A stretch of 41,592 nt of DNA from sequence record PV112476.1. One strand, written 5' to 3'. Positions 27,827-41,592 of the stretch are shown one piece after another (position 1 is the first letter of the stretch; every line of letters starts with the position of its first letter). The stretch is from Pseudomonas phage LPPA15. The notes beneath the pieces were generated by a model. The model was not told where the DNA came from. It saw only the letters and a list, made by a program, of their open reading frames with translations, and did not search any database. The translations under genes and the position numbers were made by a program.

Positions 27827-29443
27827 TTAACTTGGCATGATTACTTTAAACTTCGACGCGCTGCGCTTCGAACCCTTCAAGACGCGATAACGAACCATAT
27901 CATAACAATGGTCTTCCGCCGTCGTATCAACATCGTCGATTTTTTCTTTGTCGCGCGGTAATGTGGGCAAAAGTTCTATCGAAGCAACGCAATTTGCCAT
28001 AAAGTATATACCCGGCCCTTCGTTTTTAACAGCGGCTTCTAACCTATCGCGCAACAACTGCAAACCGTTTCGCCGCGAACCGGGCGATTTATCGGATTCA
28101 ATCCAGCGAATGCCCTTCTTCGACATTTTAAGTTCGATTGTTTCAACGTCGGATTCCCGAACGTCGCGAATTTGATTATCTGCCGGGCCGGGCCAAGGTT
28201 GCGTCGAAATCCAGCCGTTCGCCATCATCGAAACTTCGCGGTCGATAATGCCTTGCGCTACGTCTGGCGCTGAAAGCTTCAAACCTTTATTCGTACCGAT
28301 TTCGGTTGCGCCGTACCATTCGAAAATTTGAATAAGCGAACCGGCAGGCGGGCAAAACGAATAAACTTCGTCGCCGATTACTATTTGCGCTTCTTCGCCG
28401 TTGGCTTCGGCAAACCAGCCCACACTAAACGGATGCGACGAACCCCAATCCAACGCCCTATCAATGCGCCAGCTTGCAGGCACAACGAAGCGCGGTACGA
28501 CGTGAATATGCGATTGCCAAAGGTCGTCAAGCGCGCCGCCTGCGGTAACATCCCAATCGCCATAAAGCCAAGCCTTACGCAAGTTCGGGTCTTTGATACT
28601 TTCCAGTTCGGCGACGTATCCGGGCGGAAGATACTTGTTTTCGCGATACGAACCGAATATAGCGACTTGGGTTCGAACGACGGTTTCGTTTTGTTCCGTT
28701 TGCGGGTTATAGATTTCGACGGAAGTACGAACAACAGTACCGCGCGGGGCAACGTTGATAAAACGACGTTTAACCCAATTATGGCCGGGGCCGTTCGGGT
28801 TCGTCGTACTGAATACTTCTAGCGGAATCGGCGGTAACGGAAGACCGTTCGGCGTCAAATATTCGCCTTTGTCGTTCTTCGGCGTATTTAAAATCGGGTC
28901 AAATGACGAACGATTAACCGACATAAACTTGTCGTAAAGTTCCGACGAAGCATGTTTGGTTAATTCGTTCCAACCTAAAAACGGGTATTCGTGGCCGTGG
29001 AACCCTTCGTAGTCCGAAACCTTTTTGACGTGGCGAAACAACAGTTCTTCGCCAGTAGGCCAAACCCATTTATAAGCCGAAGTCGATTCGTAGAACTTCG
29101 CACCGTCGCCGAACTTGCCAAACCATTTTTTCGATTCGGCAACAAGCCCGCCCAAATGGTCAAATTCCAAATCGAAAATAACGCCGCGCCAGAATTGGCC
29201 GTAGCCTTTCCCGACGTGGCGAAGAAAGCGCATAAGTTGGGTAACAGTCTTGCCGGGGCCGCGTGCGCCTTCGTATAACGTATGGTCGCAACGCGAATCA
29301 ATGGCGATTGATTGCGAACCCGGCAAGGGTCGCCAAACGATTTCGGGTTTCGGGGCGTTCGCCAATGCCGCCGACATTCGCGCCGACTTAATGGCGCTTT
29401 CGGCGATTTCGCCCGCGCTTTTAATGTCGGCTTCGGCTAACAT
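27827..29443 (-). CDS. terL: Terminase large subunit
   Basis: 538 aa with Walker A YEGARGPGKT in the N-terminal ATPase and a nuclease-sized C-terminal half. Confidence 0.75.
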   Translation of the reverse strand: MLAEADIKSAGEIAESAIKSARMSAALANAPKPEIVWRPLPGSQSIAIDSRCDHTLYEGARGPGKTVTQLMRFLRHVGKGYGQFWRGVIFDLEFDHLGGLVAESKKWFGKFGDGAKFYESTSAYKWVWPTGEELLFRHVKKVSDYEGFHGHEYPFLGWNELTKHASSELYDKFMSVNRSSFDPILNTPKNDKGEYLTPNGLPLPPIPLEVFSTTNPNGPGHNWVKRRFINVAPRGTVVRTSVEIYNPQTEQNETVVRTQVAIFGSYRENKYLPPGYVAELESIKDPNLRKAWLYGDWDVTAGGALDDLWQSHIHVVPRFVVPASWRIDRALDWGSSHPFSVGWFAEANGEEAQIVIGDEVYSFCPPAGSLIQIFEWYGATEIGTNKGLKLSAPDVAQGIIDREVSMMANGWISTQPWPGPADNQIRDVRESDVETIELKMSKKGIRWIESDKSPGSRRNGLQLLRDRLEAAVKNEGPGIYFMANCVASIELLPTLPRDKEKIDDVDTTAEDHCYDMVRYRVLKGSKRSASKFKVIMPS

Positions 29444-29876
29444 TCAGCAATTCCCGTTGTTGTGCGGCGGCTGCGGCTTCCCATTCTTCGTTCGTTCCAT
29501 GCGTCGGAACTTCGATTGCGCGCGGGATTACGACTTGCACGGCGGGGCCGGTTTGCGGTTTCTTCGCAAGCCCCTTCAATTCCATTAGCTTATCAAGCGC
29601 CTTAATTCTGTCGTCGGGAAAGCGCGCGTTTTCGATGATTTCTTTTAGTTTTTCTTCTACATAACGTTCATCTTCCGAAACGCCAGATTCGGCAATTTCG
29701 GCTTTCTTCAATTCGGCAATCATCGCCTTAACTTCGGCGTCGTTGTGCCACATTGAAGCGATTTGCGCGGCCCGGTTAAAGTTGGCAGGATGCACCAATT
29801 GCCCGGCTTCTAGCGGGTTCATATTCGCCGAAATCATCGCTTGCGCGAATGCGGCTTTTTCTTCGGATTCGGTCAT
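29421..29876 (-). CDS. terS: Terminase small subunit (putative)
   Basis: 151 aa immediately upstream of terL, overlapping it by 23 nt. Confidence 0.45.
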   Translation of the reverse strand: MTESEEKAAFAQAMISANMNPLEAGQLVHPANFNRAAQIASMWHNDAEVKAMIAELKKAEIAESGVSEDERYVEEKLKEIIENARFPDDRIKALDKLMELKGLAKKPQTGPAVQVVIPRAIEVPTHGTNEEWEAAAAAQQRELLNVSRSRH

Positions 29877-35777: not shown

Positions 35778-36074
35778 TTACGCAAGCCGCGCGACTTCGA
35801 TACAAGCGAATTCGTTATGCACAAAGACGCGGTATTTCCGATTAAGCCATTTGCTATAAGACGTTGCGGAACTGCGCAAGCTTTGCAGCGTTCCGGGGTT
35901 AGCTTCGGCAAAAGGTACGGCGAAAGATTCGCCAACAAGCAACGAATTAAACGGATATTTGGCGTTCGCTTTGTCTTCCAAACGTTCGCCTTGTTTAACC
36001 TTCGAAGCATCGCACAACGCAAGCGCCTTCGGCGAAGCGTCGATAACTTCGTATTTCTTGGTTTGTTCGGTCAT
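35778..36074 (-). CDS. Hypothetical protein
   Basis: ATG 36074 with a strong GAAGGAG RBS. The track start at 36140 is a TTG inside the promoter -35. Confidence 0.45.
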   Translation of the reverse strand: MTEQTKKYEVIDASPKALALCDASKVKQGERLEDKANAKYPFNSLLVGESFAVPFAEANPGTLQSLRSSATSYSKWLNRKYRVFVHNEFACIEVARLA

Positions 36075-36111
36075 GGCTGGCACTCCTTCAAGGTGTTTAA
36101 TCAATTGATAA

Positions 36112-36140
36112 AGCATACAACGCACTTTATCAAGTGTCAA
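36112..36140 (-). promoter_or_regulatory. Sigma70-like promoter TTGACA-N17-TATGCT with a palindromic operator-like site CACTTTATCAAGTG (36122-36135) in the spacer
   Basis: Read directly. The same ACTTTATCAA core recurs in a second palindrome at 36249-36268. Confidence 0.45.
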
Positions 36141-36410
36141 GTTTTTTATTAAAAGTCGTTGTTATACGGATAGAAGGGGTCGTATAGTGTCTAAGTCATT
36201 GAAATATATAGATGTATAATAAATATAATGAATATAATAGCTAATAATCTTACTTTATCAATAGTAAGCTTTTAATTAAGAGTAGGGGCGGTAGGGGTGG
36301 AATCAGCCTTAAACGTTCAATTTATTATATTTTTGGAAAAAGCTTTGCGAATCAACGACTTAGGCGTTATACGCGGGCCTTATATTTGCCATCGGCTATT
36401 ATACGCGAAG

Positions 36411-36448
36411 CTTAAACGAAAAGACCGAACCTTGTTAGAAGTTCGGTC
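36411..36448 (-). terminator. Rho-independent terminator (GACCGAAC...GTTCGGTC hairpin with UUUUCGUUU on the minus strand) immediately after the RF-domain gene
   Basis: 8-bp perfect stem with a 10-nt loop and a U-run, 7 nt after the stop at 36455. Confidence 0.6.
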
Positions 36449-36454
36449 GTAGTG

Positions 36455-36820
36455 TTAGAAAAGGCATTGGCCGTTAAGTCGTCTTATGAACGCATGGGCT
36501 TTATAGTAAAGGTCGCCGGTTCCACGTTTCCAAGTCGAAACGCGCCAGTATCCAGCAACGAACACAATATGCGGTTTGCCCGGCGTGCGTTCGCGAATGG
36601 TCGAATTGTCGAAACTTTCTTTCGTCGGCTTCCAGTTTGCGACCTTGGCTTGCAGTTCTTCGAAAGCTTTTGCTTTGTTGCGATGCTGCGAACGTTCTTC
36701 GGCACATTCTGCGACCAAGCCGGAAGGAATATGCTTAATACGAACGCCGTTGTAATTCGGAACCCATGCCGAACCGCTGTTGTACGTCGTAACTTCAATG
36801 TCTGCGGGTTGAATATTCAT
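36455..36820 (-). CDS. Peptide-chain release factor GGQ-domain (RF-1 domain 3) homologue lacking the GGQ motif
   Basis: NIQPADIEVTTYNSGSAWVPNYNGVRIKHIPSGLVAECAEERSQHRNKAKA aligns to RF1/RF2 ...[50 protein letters not shown] with GGQ replaced and a 3-4 aa deletion. 121 aa, stand-alone. Confidence 0.6.
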   Translation of the reverse strand: MNIQPADIEVTTYNSGSAWVPNYNGVRIKHIPSGLVAECAEERSQHRNKAKAFEELQAKVANWKPTKESFDNSTIRERTPGKPHIVFVAGYWRVSTWKRGTGDLYYKAHAFIRRLNGQCLF

Positions 36821-36881: not shown

Positions 36882-37097
36882 TTACAGGAACGCGACGGTA
36901 TCCGACAGGTCCAAAGCCCGGCAAACAGCCTTGCGGCGTTCCTGCGCCTTGTCGTCGGGCGCGCTGCGCATCCAAATATCGGCGGCGCGTTGCGCATGTT
37001 CCGGGCCTGCGGTTCGCATAGACGCGATACGGTGCGCTTCCTTTGCTTCGTTCTTCGTAACTTCGACGACTTGGCGGTTAATACTCATTTTGTGCAT
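36882..37097 (-). CDS. Hypothetical small alpha-helical protein (partner gene in the RF-domain cassette)
   Basis: ATG 37097, 71 aa, directly downstream of the promoter at 37135-37163. Confidence 0.4.
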   Translation of the reverse strand: MHKMSINRQVVEVTKNEAKEAHRIASMRTAGPEHAQRAADIWMRSAPDDKAQERRKAVCRALDLSDTVAFL

Positions 37098-37134
37098 TTC
37101 GGTTTTCCTTTCGGTTGTTGGTTACGACGATTCA

Positions 37135-37163
37135 ATGCTAGTTCGTTAAAGCTACGTTGTCAA
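37135..37163 (-). promoter_or_regulatory. Sigma70-like promoter TTGACA-N17-TAGCAT
   Basis: Plus strand atgcta...tgtcaa, just downstream (minus sense) of the terminator at 37174-37195. Confidence 0.45.
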
Positions 37164-37173
37164 GCTTCGAACG

Positions 37174-37195
37174 AAAAAAAACCGCCCGAAGGCGG
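37174..37195 (-). terminator. Rho-independent terminator (CCGCC-TTCG-GGCGG hairpin followed by U8 on the minus strand)
   Basis: Plus strand aaaaaaaaccgcccgaaggcgg, 25 nt after the stop of gene 37220..37417. A T-rich run on the plus side as well makes it potentially bidirectional. Confidence 0.65.
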
Positions 37196-37219
37196 CTTGT
37201 TGTCTTTTCGCAACGTTGT

Positions 37220-37417
37220 TCAATAGTTGATAAGGAATTGCTTTACAAACTTGCGGCGGTCTTTCGATGCTATGCACAAATCGACCAAAGGGCGGTATTC
37301 AGGTTCAACGCGGTTTCGAACCCGCTTGGCAAAGTTACGAATTTCTTTGCCGTCTGCGCCCCAATGATACAAAAGCGCGATGCCTAACGCGAAATCAAGA
37401 ATCGTAAGTTCGTTCAT
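37220..37417 (-). CDS. Hypothetical small protein translationally coupled to the primase-polymerase gene (ATGA overlap)
   Basis: Internal ATG overlapping the primase-polymerase stop. Confidence 0.35.
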   Translation of the reverse strand: MNELTILDFALGIALLYHWGADGKEIRNFAKRVRNRVEPEYRPLVDLCIASKDRRKFVKQFLINY

Positions 37418-39732
37418 AGTCCGAACGCCTTTGCGTTTGAAATCATGTAACATTGTGCCGAAGTTCCGTAAGAATCATGCGCAAGCTTCGGGCTAAGTTG
37501 CTGAATATCGCCGCGTTCCGTAAGCGTCTTCAAAGCGCGTTTAAGTGCGCCGCTTGACCCGATGCGGTCTTTGCGGAACACGGCAACGGCTGCAAGCTTC
37601 CTTTGTACGAACGAATACGGAATTACTTTATTCGAATGAAGGTTGCCCATATTTTCGCCCGCGTATTTTGAAACTTCGGGCCAAGGCGAAACGACAAATT
37701 CTTTCATCGTCGAAATTACCTTGGCAAGCTGTTTCGTTTCGTCATTGTCTATGCCGATTTCGCCAGCGTTGAAACGGTCTAGCAAGTTGCGCACGTCGGC
37801 GACAATAAGATTCGTTGCCCATGCGGCGGCATCAACGGTAACGATTGGGTCGTAAGGGTTGCAACCTACGGCGACAAGTGCGGCAAGTTTCATTGCTTTA
37901 ATGTGCGCCCGGTTCCATAAATGGCGGCGAACTTCTTTGTCGGAACTGTTAATGTTCAAATCGCAATGCCGGTCGAATTCGTCGAACAATGCTTTCGCTT
38001 CCGGCGTAAATTGAACATGAACGGCTTTATGTTGGCTGTTCAACATAAGCGAATGCGCGCAAACTGTCGAAAGCCTGTCGATAAGTTCGAAGCTTGGTTG
38101 CGCGTAAATATGATTTGGGTTAAGCGGCGGTCGGTCGCCGTGATATTCAATCGTTGTAAAGCGCGGCAAAAGACCTTCGGAAATCAAACCTTCGTGCAAA
38201 CCTTCGTAAAATTTTTCGGGCGTTGATTCGCCAAGCAATGTAAAAGCCGGGGCGGTTACTGCCGAAGTGTTCTTTTCCTTGTCCGAATAAATCGACGGTC
38301 GAAGAACCTTGCCTTCGCCGCTTTTATTGTAGGCATCCAGTAAGAAACGACGAAGGCCCATAAGGTGCGAAGGTGCGTTGGGGCTTGCCATTTGTTGCAT
38401 ATAAATTCCGAATTCGCCGACCATCGAAACGAACGACGTTGGCCCCTTCGACATATATTTAATAACGGCTTGCGACGATGCAATTTCGCCCGGCCCGATA
38501 AAATCAACGGCGGCGGGTACGGTACGGATTACTTGCGCCATCAATTTATCGACGCCGCTTGCGATAGCTTCTTTACCTGTTCCGGTCGGCGCTAGAAGCA
38601 AGACGTATTGATTAAGCCCGGTTCCCGAAACGTTGTATGCCCTGCCCACAATACCGGCCAGAAAGCCAAGCGCGCCAGCCAAGGCGATTTCGGCAACAGG
38701 GCGCGGCGCTTGTGCGTAAATGAATTGGGCGATTTCGCCGACAAGGCCGGGCGGAACCGAATAAACGTTGGTTGTCGGGGCTGGAATTGCGACAGGCTGC
38801 GGCGTTTGTTGCGTTGCGTCGCTTTGTGCCATTGCGCGCGATTGTTCGGCCTTCGCTTTGGCTTCGATTGCTTCGTTAAGTTGGTTGCGCAATCCGTCAA
38901 TATCAACGGGCGGCAACATGCGGTCGAAGCATTTGTTAAGCATGTAATTAACGTAATCGACGCGCTTTCCTTTTTCGCGTTGGCCCAAACCCGACGCCCG
39001 AAACATTCGCGAAATCTGCGCCCGGTTTTGGGTATAGAACGCGATAATATCGACCAAGGCAAAGTCGGCTTCGGATTGCGACGGGTAATAATCTTGCCAA
39101 CGACCGGCGTAAAGGTCGGCGAACTTGTCGCCGTTTGCTGCGGCTGTTGCACGCGCCAAAATTTCTTCGTCGGTTTCTTTGGCTTCGGCTACGCCAGCAT
39201 AAACGGCGGCGGCAACCGAACCCGAACCCATTTGCGACCAAAGAACGTTCAATAGTTCGCCGCAATCTTTAATCGGCGCATTGCGGTAAATGTCGCCCGT
39301 CATCGTCATATAACGCGCCGAAGAATAAACTTCGATAAACGAACGACGACGACCCGACGGCAACGCGCCTTTAACGATGATATGTAAGCCGGAACCCGAA
39401 GGCGAACGTTCGGCGTAACTGTCAAATTCGTTAAAGATTTTAACTTGACGGTCTAACGCTGTTTGGTCGCCCTTTGTGTCGTCAAGGTCGATAAACGCGA
39501 ATGGGTCGGCTTCGGTCAATACGAAACCAATTCCGCTATACATGCCGGAAGTTGTTAGAACGTGCGCCGCTTCGTCGAAACTGGCCCAAGTGCTAGGGTC
39601 GGTTACGCTGGCAAGTCTGCCGTTCAATGCTGAATAAGGAACCTTCGTCGGTTTCGGCCCGTCTGTATCTTCGTAACGCCAAACAACCCATTGGCGGAAA
39701 ATCCGCATTTCTTGCGGTATATTGTTTAACAT
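37414..39732 (-). CDS. Bifunctional primase-polymerase with a C-terminal D5/P4-type NTPase-helicase domain
   Basis: Primase-polymerase motifs FAFIDLDD and SGSGLHIIVKG in the N-terminal 130 aa. P-loop-like LLLAPTGTGKEA at residues about 378-389 in the C-terminal half. Confidence 0.65.
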   Translation of the reverse strand: MLNNIPQEMRIFRQWVVWRYEDTDGPKPTKVPYSALNGRLASVTDPSTWASFDEAAHVLTTSGMYSGIGFVLTEADPFAFIDLDDTKGDQTALDRQVKIFNEFDSYAERSPSGSGLHIIVKGALPSGRRRSFIEVYSSARYMTMTGDIYRNAPIKDCGELLNVLWSQMGSGSVAAAVYAGVAEAKETDEEILARATAAANGDKFADLYAGRWQDYYPSQSEADFALVDIIAFYTQNRAQISRMFRASGLGQREKGKRVDYVNYMLNKCFDRMLPPVDIDGLRNQLNEAIEAKAKAEQSRAMAQSDATQQTPQPVAIPAPTTNVYSVPPGLVGEIAQFIYAQAPRPVAEIALAGALGFLAGIVGRAYNVSGTGLNQYVLLLAPTGTGKEAIASGVDKLMAQVIRTVPAAVDFIGPGEIASSQAVIKYMSKGPTSFVSMVGEFGIYMQQMASPNAPSHLMGLRRFLLDAYNKSGEGKVLRPSIYSDKEKNTSAVTAPAFTLLGESTPEKFYEGLHEGLISEGLLPRFTTIEYHGDRPPLNPNHIYAQPSFELIDRLSTVCAHSLMLNSQHKAVHVQFTPEAKALFDEFDRHCDLNINSSDKEVRRHLWNRAHIKAMKLAALVAVGCNPYDPIVTVDAAAWATNLIVADVRNLLDRFNAGEIGIDNDETKQLAKVISTMKEFVVSPWPEVSKYAGENMGNLHSNKVIPYSFVQRKLAAVAVFRKDRIGSSGALKRALKTLTERGDIQQLSPKLAHDSYGTSAQCYMISNAKAFGL

Positions 39733-41218: not shown

Positions 41219-41577
41219 TGCGAAGACGGGAAGAACAATCGGCCTTAGCCCTTATCGAACGATTCTTGAAAGATAAGGGCGGGCTTACTTCCTATCAATT
41301 GGCCGAACTTTTGGGTATAAATATTCGAAACGTTCGGCCATACATGAAAATTTTGCACGATAGGAAGACCGTATTTATTCAGGATTGGAAAACGCCGAAA
41401 CATGGGCACGGCCCGAAGGTTCCGGTTTGGCGACTTGACGAATACGGCGACGGCGACGACGAACCTTATCCGAAACCAACTAGCCCACAACAACGGGCGC
41501 GAATTTACAGGAAGCGCAAAAATGCAAATGTCCAATTTAAAACCGGCGTCGGAACTGGCGCAACGCTTCGGCGTTAA
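41218..41577 (+). CDS. Helix-turn-helix DNA-binding protein (spans the circular junction; C-terminus equals nt 1-112)
   Basis: TSYQLAELLGINIRNV HTH with a basic C-terminal tail. TAATG overlap with the upstream gene. Confidence 0.45.
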   Translation: MRRREEQSALALIERFLKDKGGLTSYQLAELLGINIRNVRPYMKILHDRKTVFIQDWKTPKHGHGPKVPVWRLDEYGDGDDEPYPKPTSPQQRARIYRKRKNANVQFKTGVGTGATLRR

Positions 41578-41592
41578 AGCGTTGGTTTATGG

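Follow-up and report, generated by a model that had tools for sequence, protein, structure and literature searches.

The packaging site (pac) of a phage typically lies within or beside its small-terminase gene, as in P22, SPP1, P1 and Sf6, although this position is not obligatory. The pac site of P1, studied by Sternberg and Coulby and by Skorupski et al., reportedly has short repeats flanking a central cleavage region, and an IHF site is said to stimulate cleavage. In SPP1, the small terminase TerS binds two sites, pacL and pacR, which flank the cut site pacC, and the pac region overlaps late promoters (PMC6316719). The headful-pac class of PhageTerm is modelled on P1, and the program outputs a genome rearranged to begin at the detected termini (PMC5557969). 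For the Septimatrevirus SCUT-S4 (S4), PhageTerm gives circularly permuted termini with pac at nt 37,176, between ORF43 and ORF44, and the authors term the packaging mechanism 'P1-type' (PMC11769102). Langgrundblatt1 and Langgrundblatt2 were classed as 'Headful (pac)' by the same program (PMC9316219). Heating of the DNA of Kilunavirus KL1 revealed no cos site (PMC3483164), which fits headful packaging. Given this result and the circular permutation of the relatives, a cos site was considered unlikely.

The window analyzed here, 41,592 nucleotides of Pseudomonas phage LPPA15, begins and ends with the same 127 nt (1-127 and 41466-41592). This phage contig is therefore circular and complete, and its unit measures 41,465 bp. 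This assembly overlap is compatible with headful packaging but is not proof of it. Nucleotide searches grouped the window with the phage-73-like siphophages, comprising Septimatrevirus, Kilunavirus KL1 and relatives, whose hosts are Pseudomonas, Stenotrophomonas, Xanthomonas and Burkholderia. The minus strand carries genes across 8345-39732. In the order of transcription, a gene for a 772-aa prim-pol/helicase with an NrS-1-type helix-bundle domain and DUF3987 (37414..39732, minus strand, 1 kb from the block described below) is followed by small genes, an RF-1-domain gene (36455..36820, minus strand, 121 residues), a terminator, and a stretch at 36075-36454 in which no credible gene was found. 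The non-coding block that is the subject of this work lies in this stretch. Beyond it, the first downstream gene (35778..36074, minus strand; DUF7303/phrog_10287) is a homolog of phage 73 ORF039, with the ribosome-binding site AAGGAG ahead of its ATG at 36074. Many small genes, the lysis genes, terS (small terminase, 29421..29876, minus strand), terL (large terminase, 27827..29443, minus strand, with Pfam terminase matches under the cut-offs) and the structural genes follow in this order. Two minus-strand transcription units and a terminator had been proposed to flank the block in an earlier reading of the sequence alone, and this arrangement was borne out.

The genes next to the block vary among the relatives. 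An additional small ORF, rich in Cys, separates the block from the ORF039 homolog in Kopi, in phage 73 and in phages related to them (Kopi_047, L001 1784-2002; phage 73 ORF038, L002 1787-1978), and this ORF is missing in the window and in KL1. Directly to the right of the block, Kopi carries a C-5 cytosine methyltransferase gene (Kopi_048, L001 2310-3275) in place of the RF-1-domain gene of the window, and the slot adjoining the block appears to be a gene-exchange site. The RF-1-domain protein of the window (36455-36820) retains the ECAEERSQHRNKAKA segment of class-I release factors, while the GGQ tripeptide is absent throughout; it would be an odd, possibly non-hydrolytic, release-factor-like phage protein. 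The record of Xanthomonas phage NR08 (OQ055246, L010) has the same block and flanking genes but is 98.8 kb long, about twice the size of its relatives, and may be a concatenated or chimeric assembly.

The best external evidence on what the block does comes from the mapped or recorded DNA ends of its relatives. The S4 gap between ORF43 and ORF44 (37066-37385) is the homolog of the block, and nt 37,176 maps between GCC and GGGG in the GC island of this homologous block. A record from an independent source, PQ879543, has its junction between GAGTGCGCCC and CGGTACAGG, inside the GC island and 2-3 nt from the S4 spot. The record junction of Langgrundblatt1/2 lies between TAATTAG and CAGGTTAACAGGGGG, approximately 13-15 nt from the S4 spot and approximately 11 nt left of the G-runs. 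Relative to the shared anchor GTTATACTTG, the S4 pac is found at a distance of 27 nt, the PQ879543 end at 25 nt and the Langgrundblatt end at 40 nt. By homology, the cut in the window would fall at approximately 36288-36290, between two GTAGGGG repeats, and this G-run island most likely marks the start of DNA packaging. The sequence-only reading, which had interpreted the block as an origin or operator region, had not considered packaging; the virion DNA ends of the relatives place the pac cut in the G-run island. We conclude with moderate confidence that the block is the pac region of a siphophage with headful packaging and shares its DNA with a pair of back-to-back promoters. Packaging is the best-supported function of the block, and replication origin is the main rival.

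Other findings count against a pac site. UF_RH5 was found to be circularly permuted by PhageTerm with no pac site reported, and Pfeifenkraut was classed as 'Headful (pac)', yet its record is not linearised at the block. The terminus evidence from the relatives is of a predictive kind, comprising PhageTerm predictions and record starts, and a read-start peak could alternatively reflect a site-specific nick. The supplementary files of the S4 paper held no PhageTerm detail, and literature searches returned nothing usable on the genome termini of Kakheti25 and Ab26. In the S4 genome-reduction work, the genes flanking the gap were deleted, with a total loss of 1284 + 1599 = 2883 bp. This total shows that the homologous gap itself was retained, and the neighbouring genes, including the gp44-48 cluster, are therefore dispensable.

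The S4 block shares with the window the core motifs GTTATACG and CTAAGTCCTTGA, the TATAAT repeats, a G-run island, the IHF consensus and the TTATACG cluster, and, as in the window, it separates the small genes that follow the primase from the ORF039-type cluster. The island reads GGGCCGGGGTTTCAGGG in S4 versus GTAGGGGCGGTAGGGG in the window. The S4 publication gives the pac coordinate only and describes neither anatomy nor binding sites nor any experiment on the site (PMC11769102). Compared with the pac region of SPP1, the block is likewise a region of a few hundred base pairs with a three-part layout and promoter overlap. However, SPP1 pac overlaps terS, whereas the block shows no sequence similarity to it and is located approximately 6.4 kb upstream of terS, and the intervening DNA carries the lysis cassette as well as about 20 small genes. 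This distance, which is likewise large in KL1, PaMx42 and Langgrundblatt1, differs from the situation in P22, SPP1, P1 and Sf6 and also counts against pac. The block resembles P1 pac in its flanking repeats and IHF-like sites. The P1 repeats, however, are Dam-methylated TGATCA/G hexamers within pacA, while the block is an intergenic sequence at a large distance from the terminase genes, contains no GATC and has different heptamers.

We then mapped the short elements of the block. All elements named in the sequence-only reading exist, although some of its coordinates were 1-9 nt off: the three TTATACG copies placed at about 36153, 36359 and 36401 are real but start at 36162, 36367 and 36399, while the inverted CGTATAG (36181-36187), the two palindromes (36123-36136 and 36249-36268) and the duplicated GTAGGGG (36282-36297) are likewise present. 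The first palindrome, CACTTTATCAAGTG, has 5-bp arms that enclose a 4-nt core. The left arm of the block (36162..36202) contains TTATACG at 36162-36168, the inverted CGTATAG and CTAAGTCATTGA at 36191-36202; the last of these, read on the minus strand, is the IHF-like TCAATGACTTAG, with one mismatch to the consensus. It is followed by the AT tract TATAATAAATATAATGAATATAATAG (36215-36240), in which three tandem TATAAT units (36215..36238, plus strand) recur with a 9-bp period. An inverted copy of these units is found at 36320-36332, and the inverted pair covaries at one position, with GC in four and AU in three of eight sequences. The variable AT-rich centre (36249..36279) consists of the hairpin-type palindrome CTTACTTTATCAATAGTAAG, which has 6-bp arms and holds the third copy of CTTTATCAA, and of TTAATTAA (36272-36279). 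The latter is the centre of a nested dyad symmetry, and the dyad centres of the inverted repeats I1, I5, I14 and I18 all lie at 36272-36281. Next to this centre is the G-run island GTAGGGG-CG-GTAGGGG (GTAGGGGCGGTAGGGG, 36282..36297).

The right half of the block contains an exact match (AATCAACGACTTA) to the IHF consensus WATCAANNNNTTR at 36350..36362 on the plus strand, one of five such matches genome-wide. It is located in the right arm of the long-range inverted repeat I1, whose 22-nt arms (36181-36202 and 36352-36373) are 82% complementary and 149 nt apart. The possibility that this repeat forms an RNA helix was rejected, since its variable positions are uncompensated (A opposite C in the window, A opposite G in NR08); the arms appear to be a DNA motif present in duplicate. 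This long-range repeat, the inverted copy of the TATAAT units and the dyad centre at TTAATTAA are additions to the elements listed in the sequence-only reading. Both IHF-like sites (36191-36202 and 36350-36362) may be bound by IHF. A plus-strand heptamer cluster (36367..36405) completes the right half, with TTATACG at 36367, the degenerate TTATATT at 36380 and TTATACG at 36399, that is, with spacings of 13 and 19 nt. Relatives have three to five TTATAC/TTAAAC copies in this cluster, and the right-hand heptamers are candidate binding repeats for the small terminase or an initiator.

The repeats of the block exceed chance expectation. In 5000 dinucleotide-preserving shuffles of 36100-36420, the mean count of TTATACG was 0.17, compared with three observed copies (P = 0.0002), and AGGGG occurred three times versus 0.36 expected (P = 0.0014). 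The motif CTTTATCAA was observed three times versus 0.007 expected, a count reached in none of the 5000 shuffles, and these three copies are the genome-wide total, every one of them inside the block. Both genome copies of TCAANGACTTAG are likewise in the block, where they are mutually inverted and form the core of the long-range inverted repeat.

The block was found in 61 phage records, covering Septimatrevirus, Kilunavirus KL1, Langgrundblatt and Suba, and also in IMG/VR contigs. Its closest relatives are two IMG/VR loci (L024 and L029), in a lineage separate from that of S4. Compared with phage 73, the block is 74% identical over 314 nt, which is about equal to the identity of the flanking genes, and in an alignment of 16 sequences the best-conserved stretches were 36160-36240 and 36310-36330; within the former, conservation is highest at 36160-36204 and in the TATAAT units (36215-36238). 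The repeats, for which conservation in related phages had been proposed as a check, are conserved, and the order of the elements recurs in the window and 15 relatives. From left to right, one TTATAC(G) and an inverted CGTATAG are followed by the minus-strand IHF-like TCAATGACTTAG and two to three TATAAT units, then by approximately 45-75 nt of variable AT-rich DNA and the island, and finally by two TTAAAC/TTATAC, the exact IHF consensus (present at the same place in 10 of the 15 relatives) and two to three TTATAC(G). The sequence of the island differs among the relatives, but it always consists of G- or C-runs, and it is flanked in the window and 15 relatives by heptamers and IHF-consensus sites, the heptamers being candidates for TerS binding. 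No earlier account of the motif anatomy of the block or of its conservation across genera was found in the literature searched, and both appear to be previously undescribed there; for SCUT-S4, a packaging start had been predicted before at the corresponding position.

The main alternative is that the block is a replication origin, either alone or shared with pac, which we regard as possible but rather unlikely. According to this explanation, the TTATACG heptamers would be iterons for the 772-aa prim-pol/helicase, the three TATAAT units an unwinding element, and IHF would bend the DNA, while the embedded promoter would activate or prime initiation. The layout of SaPI pri-rep-ori replicons and of iteron plasmids is the same as that of the block. 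As in these replicons and the ori of phage P4, repeats (three exact TTATACG with degenerate and inverted copies) lie on either side of an AT-rich core with three TATAAT units, IHF-like sites are present, and an initiator-type gene is close, the block always being found approximately 1-1.7 kb downstream of the primase-helicase gene. The low GC content claimed for the block was confirmed: its 300-nt window has a GC content of 0.313 and is the lowest of the whole genome, the next lowest being 0.40, and the block was the lowest-GC window in five of six genomes checked. Furthermore, the detrended cumulative GC skew of the window reaches its minimum at 36030, and in six of the eight genomes compared (the window, L018-L022, L046 and L047) the minimum is no farther than 1.5% of the genome length from the block centre, although both flanks share the gene strand in most genomes. 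Such a GC-skew switch at the site may be a further point of resemblance to iteron-type origins, and a minimum at the block is not explained by a pac site.

Against an origin, the skew amplitude was clearly above that of 500-nt block shuffles in only two of the eight genomes, Pfeifenkraut and Langgrundblatt1. The minimum lies elsewhere in Ep028 and PaMx42, and the genomes used are related and hence not independent cases. There are just three exact heptamers, and their irregular 13- and 19-nt spacing, like their small number, differs from that of iteron-type origins. The block lacks the DnaA box TTATNCACA, and no connection between its repeats and the prim-pol/helicase is apparent. In addition, the sole physical mapping in the relatives concerns virion ends, which point to packaging. 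Thus, the iteron origin proposed from the sequence alone is not refuted by the skew minimum, the conserved repeats and the lack of a coding gene, but the absence of a DnaA box and the weak skew amplitude speak against it.

The block also contains elements of transcriptional control. The promoter that the sequence-only reading had placed at 36112-36140 was supported: it consists of the leftward sigma70-type TTGACA-17-TATGCT (36140..36112, minus strand), and 10 of 15 relatives have a TTGACA-17-(-10) pair in the corresponding position. This candidate promoter would serve the ORF039-homolog, lysis, terminase and structural genes. A rightward candidate, TTGAAA-19-TATAAT (36199..36229, plus strand), matches the consensus at 11 of 12 positions with a long spacer, and 11 of 15 relatives have TTGAAA-TATAAT there too, separated by 18-19 nt. 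Both predicted promoters thus show sigma70 hexamers, a spacer of 16-19 nt, positional conservation and a downstream gene, which is present on the left in all genomes and on the right in Suba, Langgrundblatt1 and the IMG/VR locus L033. The rightward element is a credible promoter because genes exit the block on both sides in these three. In Suba (L031 7694-9000) and Langgrundblatt1 (L047 43285-44004), a small-gene cassette is transcribed from the block towards the primase gene, making the block a divergent promoter region there. In the lineage of the window, the rightward promoter would yield a non-coding transcript of approximately 210 nt, which would extend across the predicted cut as far as the hairpin. 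No sigma54 promoter (TGGCAC-N5-TTGC) was found in the block.

The inverted repeat CAATTGATAAAG-N11-CTTTATCAAGTG (36102..36136; I7), which is 92% complementary and operator-like in appearance, extends over the leftward promoter from the spacer through the -10 to the start region; it is kept in KL1 but only partly in Kopi. The right border of the block is formed by an intrinsic terminator hairpin on the minus strand, GACCGAAC...GTTCGGTC followed by TTTTCGTTT (36423..36448), which is predicted to terminate the upstream primase/RF-1 transcription unit. An equivalent hairpin is located beyond the block in Kopi, KL1, PaMx42 and DoCa8, and in Kopi and PaMx42 it is annotated as a terminator. The earlier suggestion of a regulatory hub or operator region was supported as far as a conserved non-coding hub and an operator-like repeat over the leftward promoter are concerned.

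These elements raise the question of whether the block is a transcription control region only, with back-to-back sigma70 promoters, UP-like AT-rich DNA, IHF sites and regulator sites. A phage regulator would then time the switch from the replication genes to the operon of small, lysis and structural genes, and the mapped ends of the relatives would be assembly artefacts or record starts chosen by the authors. The conservation of both promoters, the terminator immediately upstream, the departure of genes in both directions in Suba, Langgrundblatt1 and L033 and the operator-like repeat are all in line with this explanation. So is the record of PS9N (KM434185; L044/L045), which is linearised inside the block at another point, between GTATAGC and TGCTAAGTCC. 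Its start, which also counts against pac, is probably a chosen one and not a mapped end, and its position approximately 95 nt left of the GC island suggests that some authors may simply begin records at a large gap. However, the promoters fill just about 36100-36240, whereas neither the G/C-run island nor the right half (36300-36410), which is conserved to the same degree, has a promoter role. Moreover, the S4 pac coordinate was obtained by PhageTerm independently of the record start and is within 2-3 nt of the PQ879543 terminus. We therefore consider it unlikely that the block serves transcription only.

Finally, the block was examined for a product of its own. The claim that an island of about 320 bp holds no credible ORF was upheld, and the block contains no conserved protein-coding gene. 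Frames are open on both of its strands, and in most relatives one is open on the plus strand, but their ends are at differing positions, substitutions among the relatives show no 3-nt periodicity (0.248/0.247/0.293 by phase), and the KL1 block carries frame-breaking 2-nt indels. For these reasons, the plus-strand ORF 36297..36452 and the minus-strand frames were rejected. A scan of the block for tRNA and tmRNA found nothing, and the comparison with Rfam gave no match at the gathering score or at E <= 1. The RNAalifold consensus of eight block sequences reached -3.2 kcal/mol, with one covarying pair in a weak AT-rich stem, and the single-sequence folding energies were not better than those of shuffles (z-scores of -1.75 for RNA and -1.18 for DNA). 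The small RNA considered in the sequence-only reading thus found no support in folding energy, z-scores or Rfam. It is highly improbable that the block makes either a small non-coding RNA of approximately 210 nt, with its start at the rightward promoter and its end at the 36423-36448 hairpin, or a 51-aa protein from 36297..36452, even though a conserved rightward promoter lies upstream with no gene downstream in the lineage of the window, given the weak folding and uncompensated arms on the RNA side and the lack of codon periodicity, the indels, the differing stops and the two open strands on the protein side.

Returning to the pac interpretation, we propose the following mechanism. The small terminase (29421..29876) would bind the TTATAC(G) heptamers flanking the G-run island, and host IHF would bend the DNA at the inverted IHF-like sites (36191-36202 and 36350-36362), joining the two arms. 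The large terminase (27827..29443) would then cut each concatemer for the first time within the G-run island or beside it, at approximately 36288-36290. From there, packaging would probably proceed to the left, in the direction of the lysis and structural genes, and stop once the head has been filled; this headful packaging would yield circularly permuted, terminally redundant DNA. The leftward promoter (36140..36112) with its operator-like repeat may restart transcription past the terminator at 36423-36448.

A broader interpretation is that one module of approximately 300 bp, shared by at least four phage genera, is packaging start, replication origin and divergent promoter pair at the same time, adjoining the replication genes and lying 6 kb from the terminase genes. 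We regard this combined reading as a whole as distinctly unlikely. If it is true, a single IHF-bent, dyad-symmetric nucleoprotein complex would organise DNA replication, the transition to late transcription and the initial cut by the terminase.

Phage-73-like siphophages are used in synthetic-genome work and in phage therapy against Pseudomonas, Stenotrophomonas, Xanthomonas and Burkholderia. A known packaging start, together with the short elements it requires, would show engineers what must stay intact, and the genome-reduction study of S4 retained exactly this gap. Knowledge of the packaging start also helps to forecast the risk of generalised transduction. Should the block turn out to be an origin or no more than a promoter region, the map of its conserved motifs would still offer direct experimental targets. 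As a pac region, remote from the terminase genes and with an architecture conserved across genera, it would provide a useful comparison for the well-studied systems of P1, P22 and SPP1.
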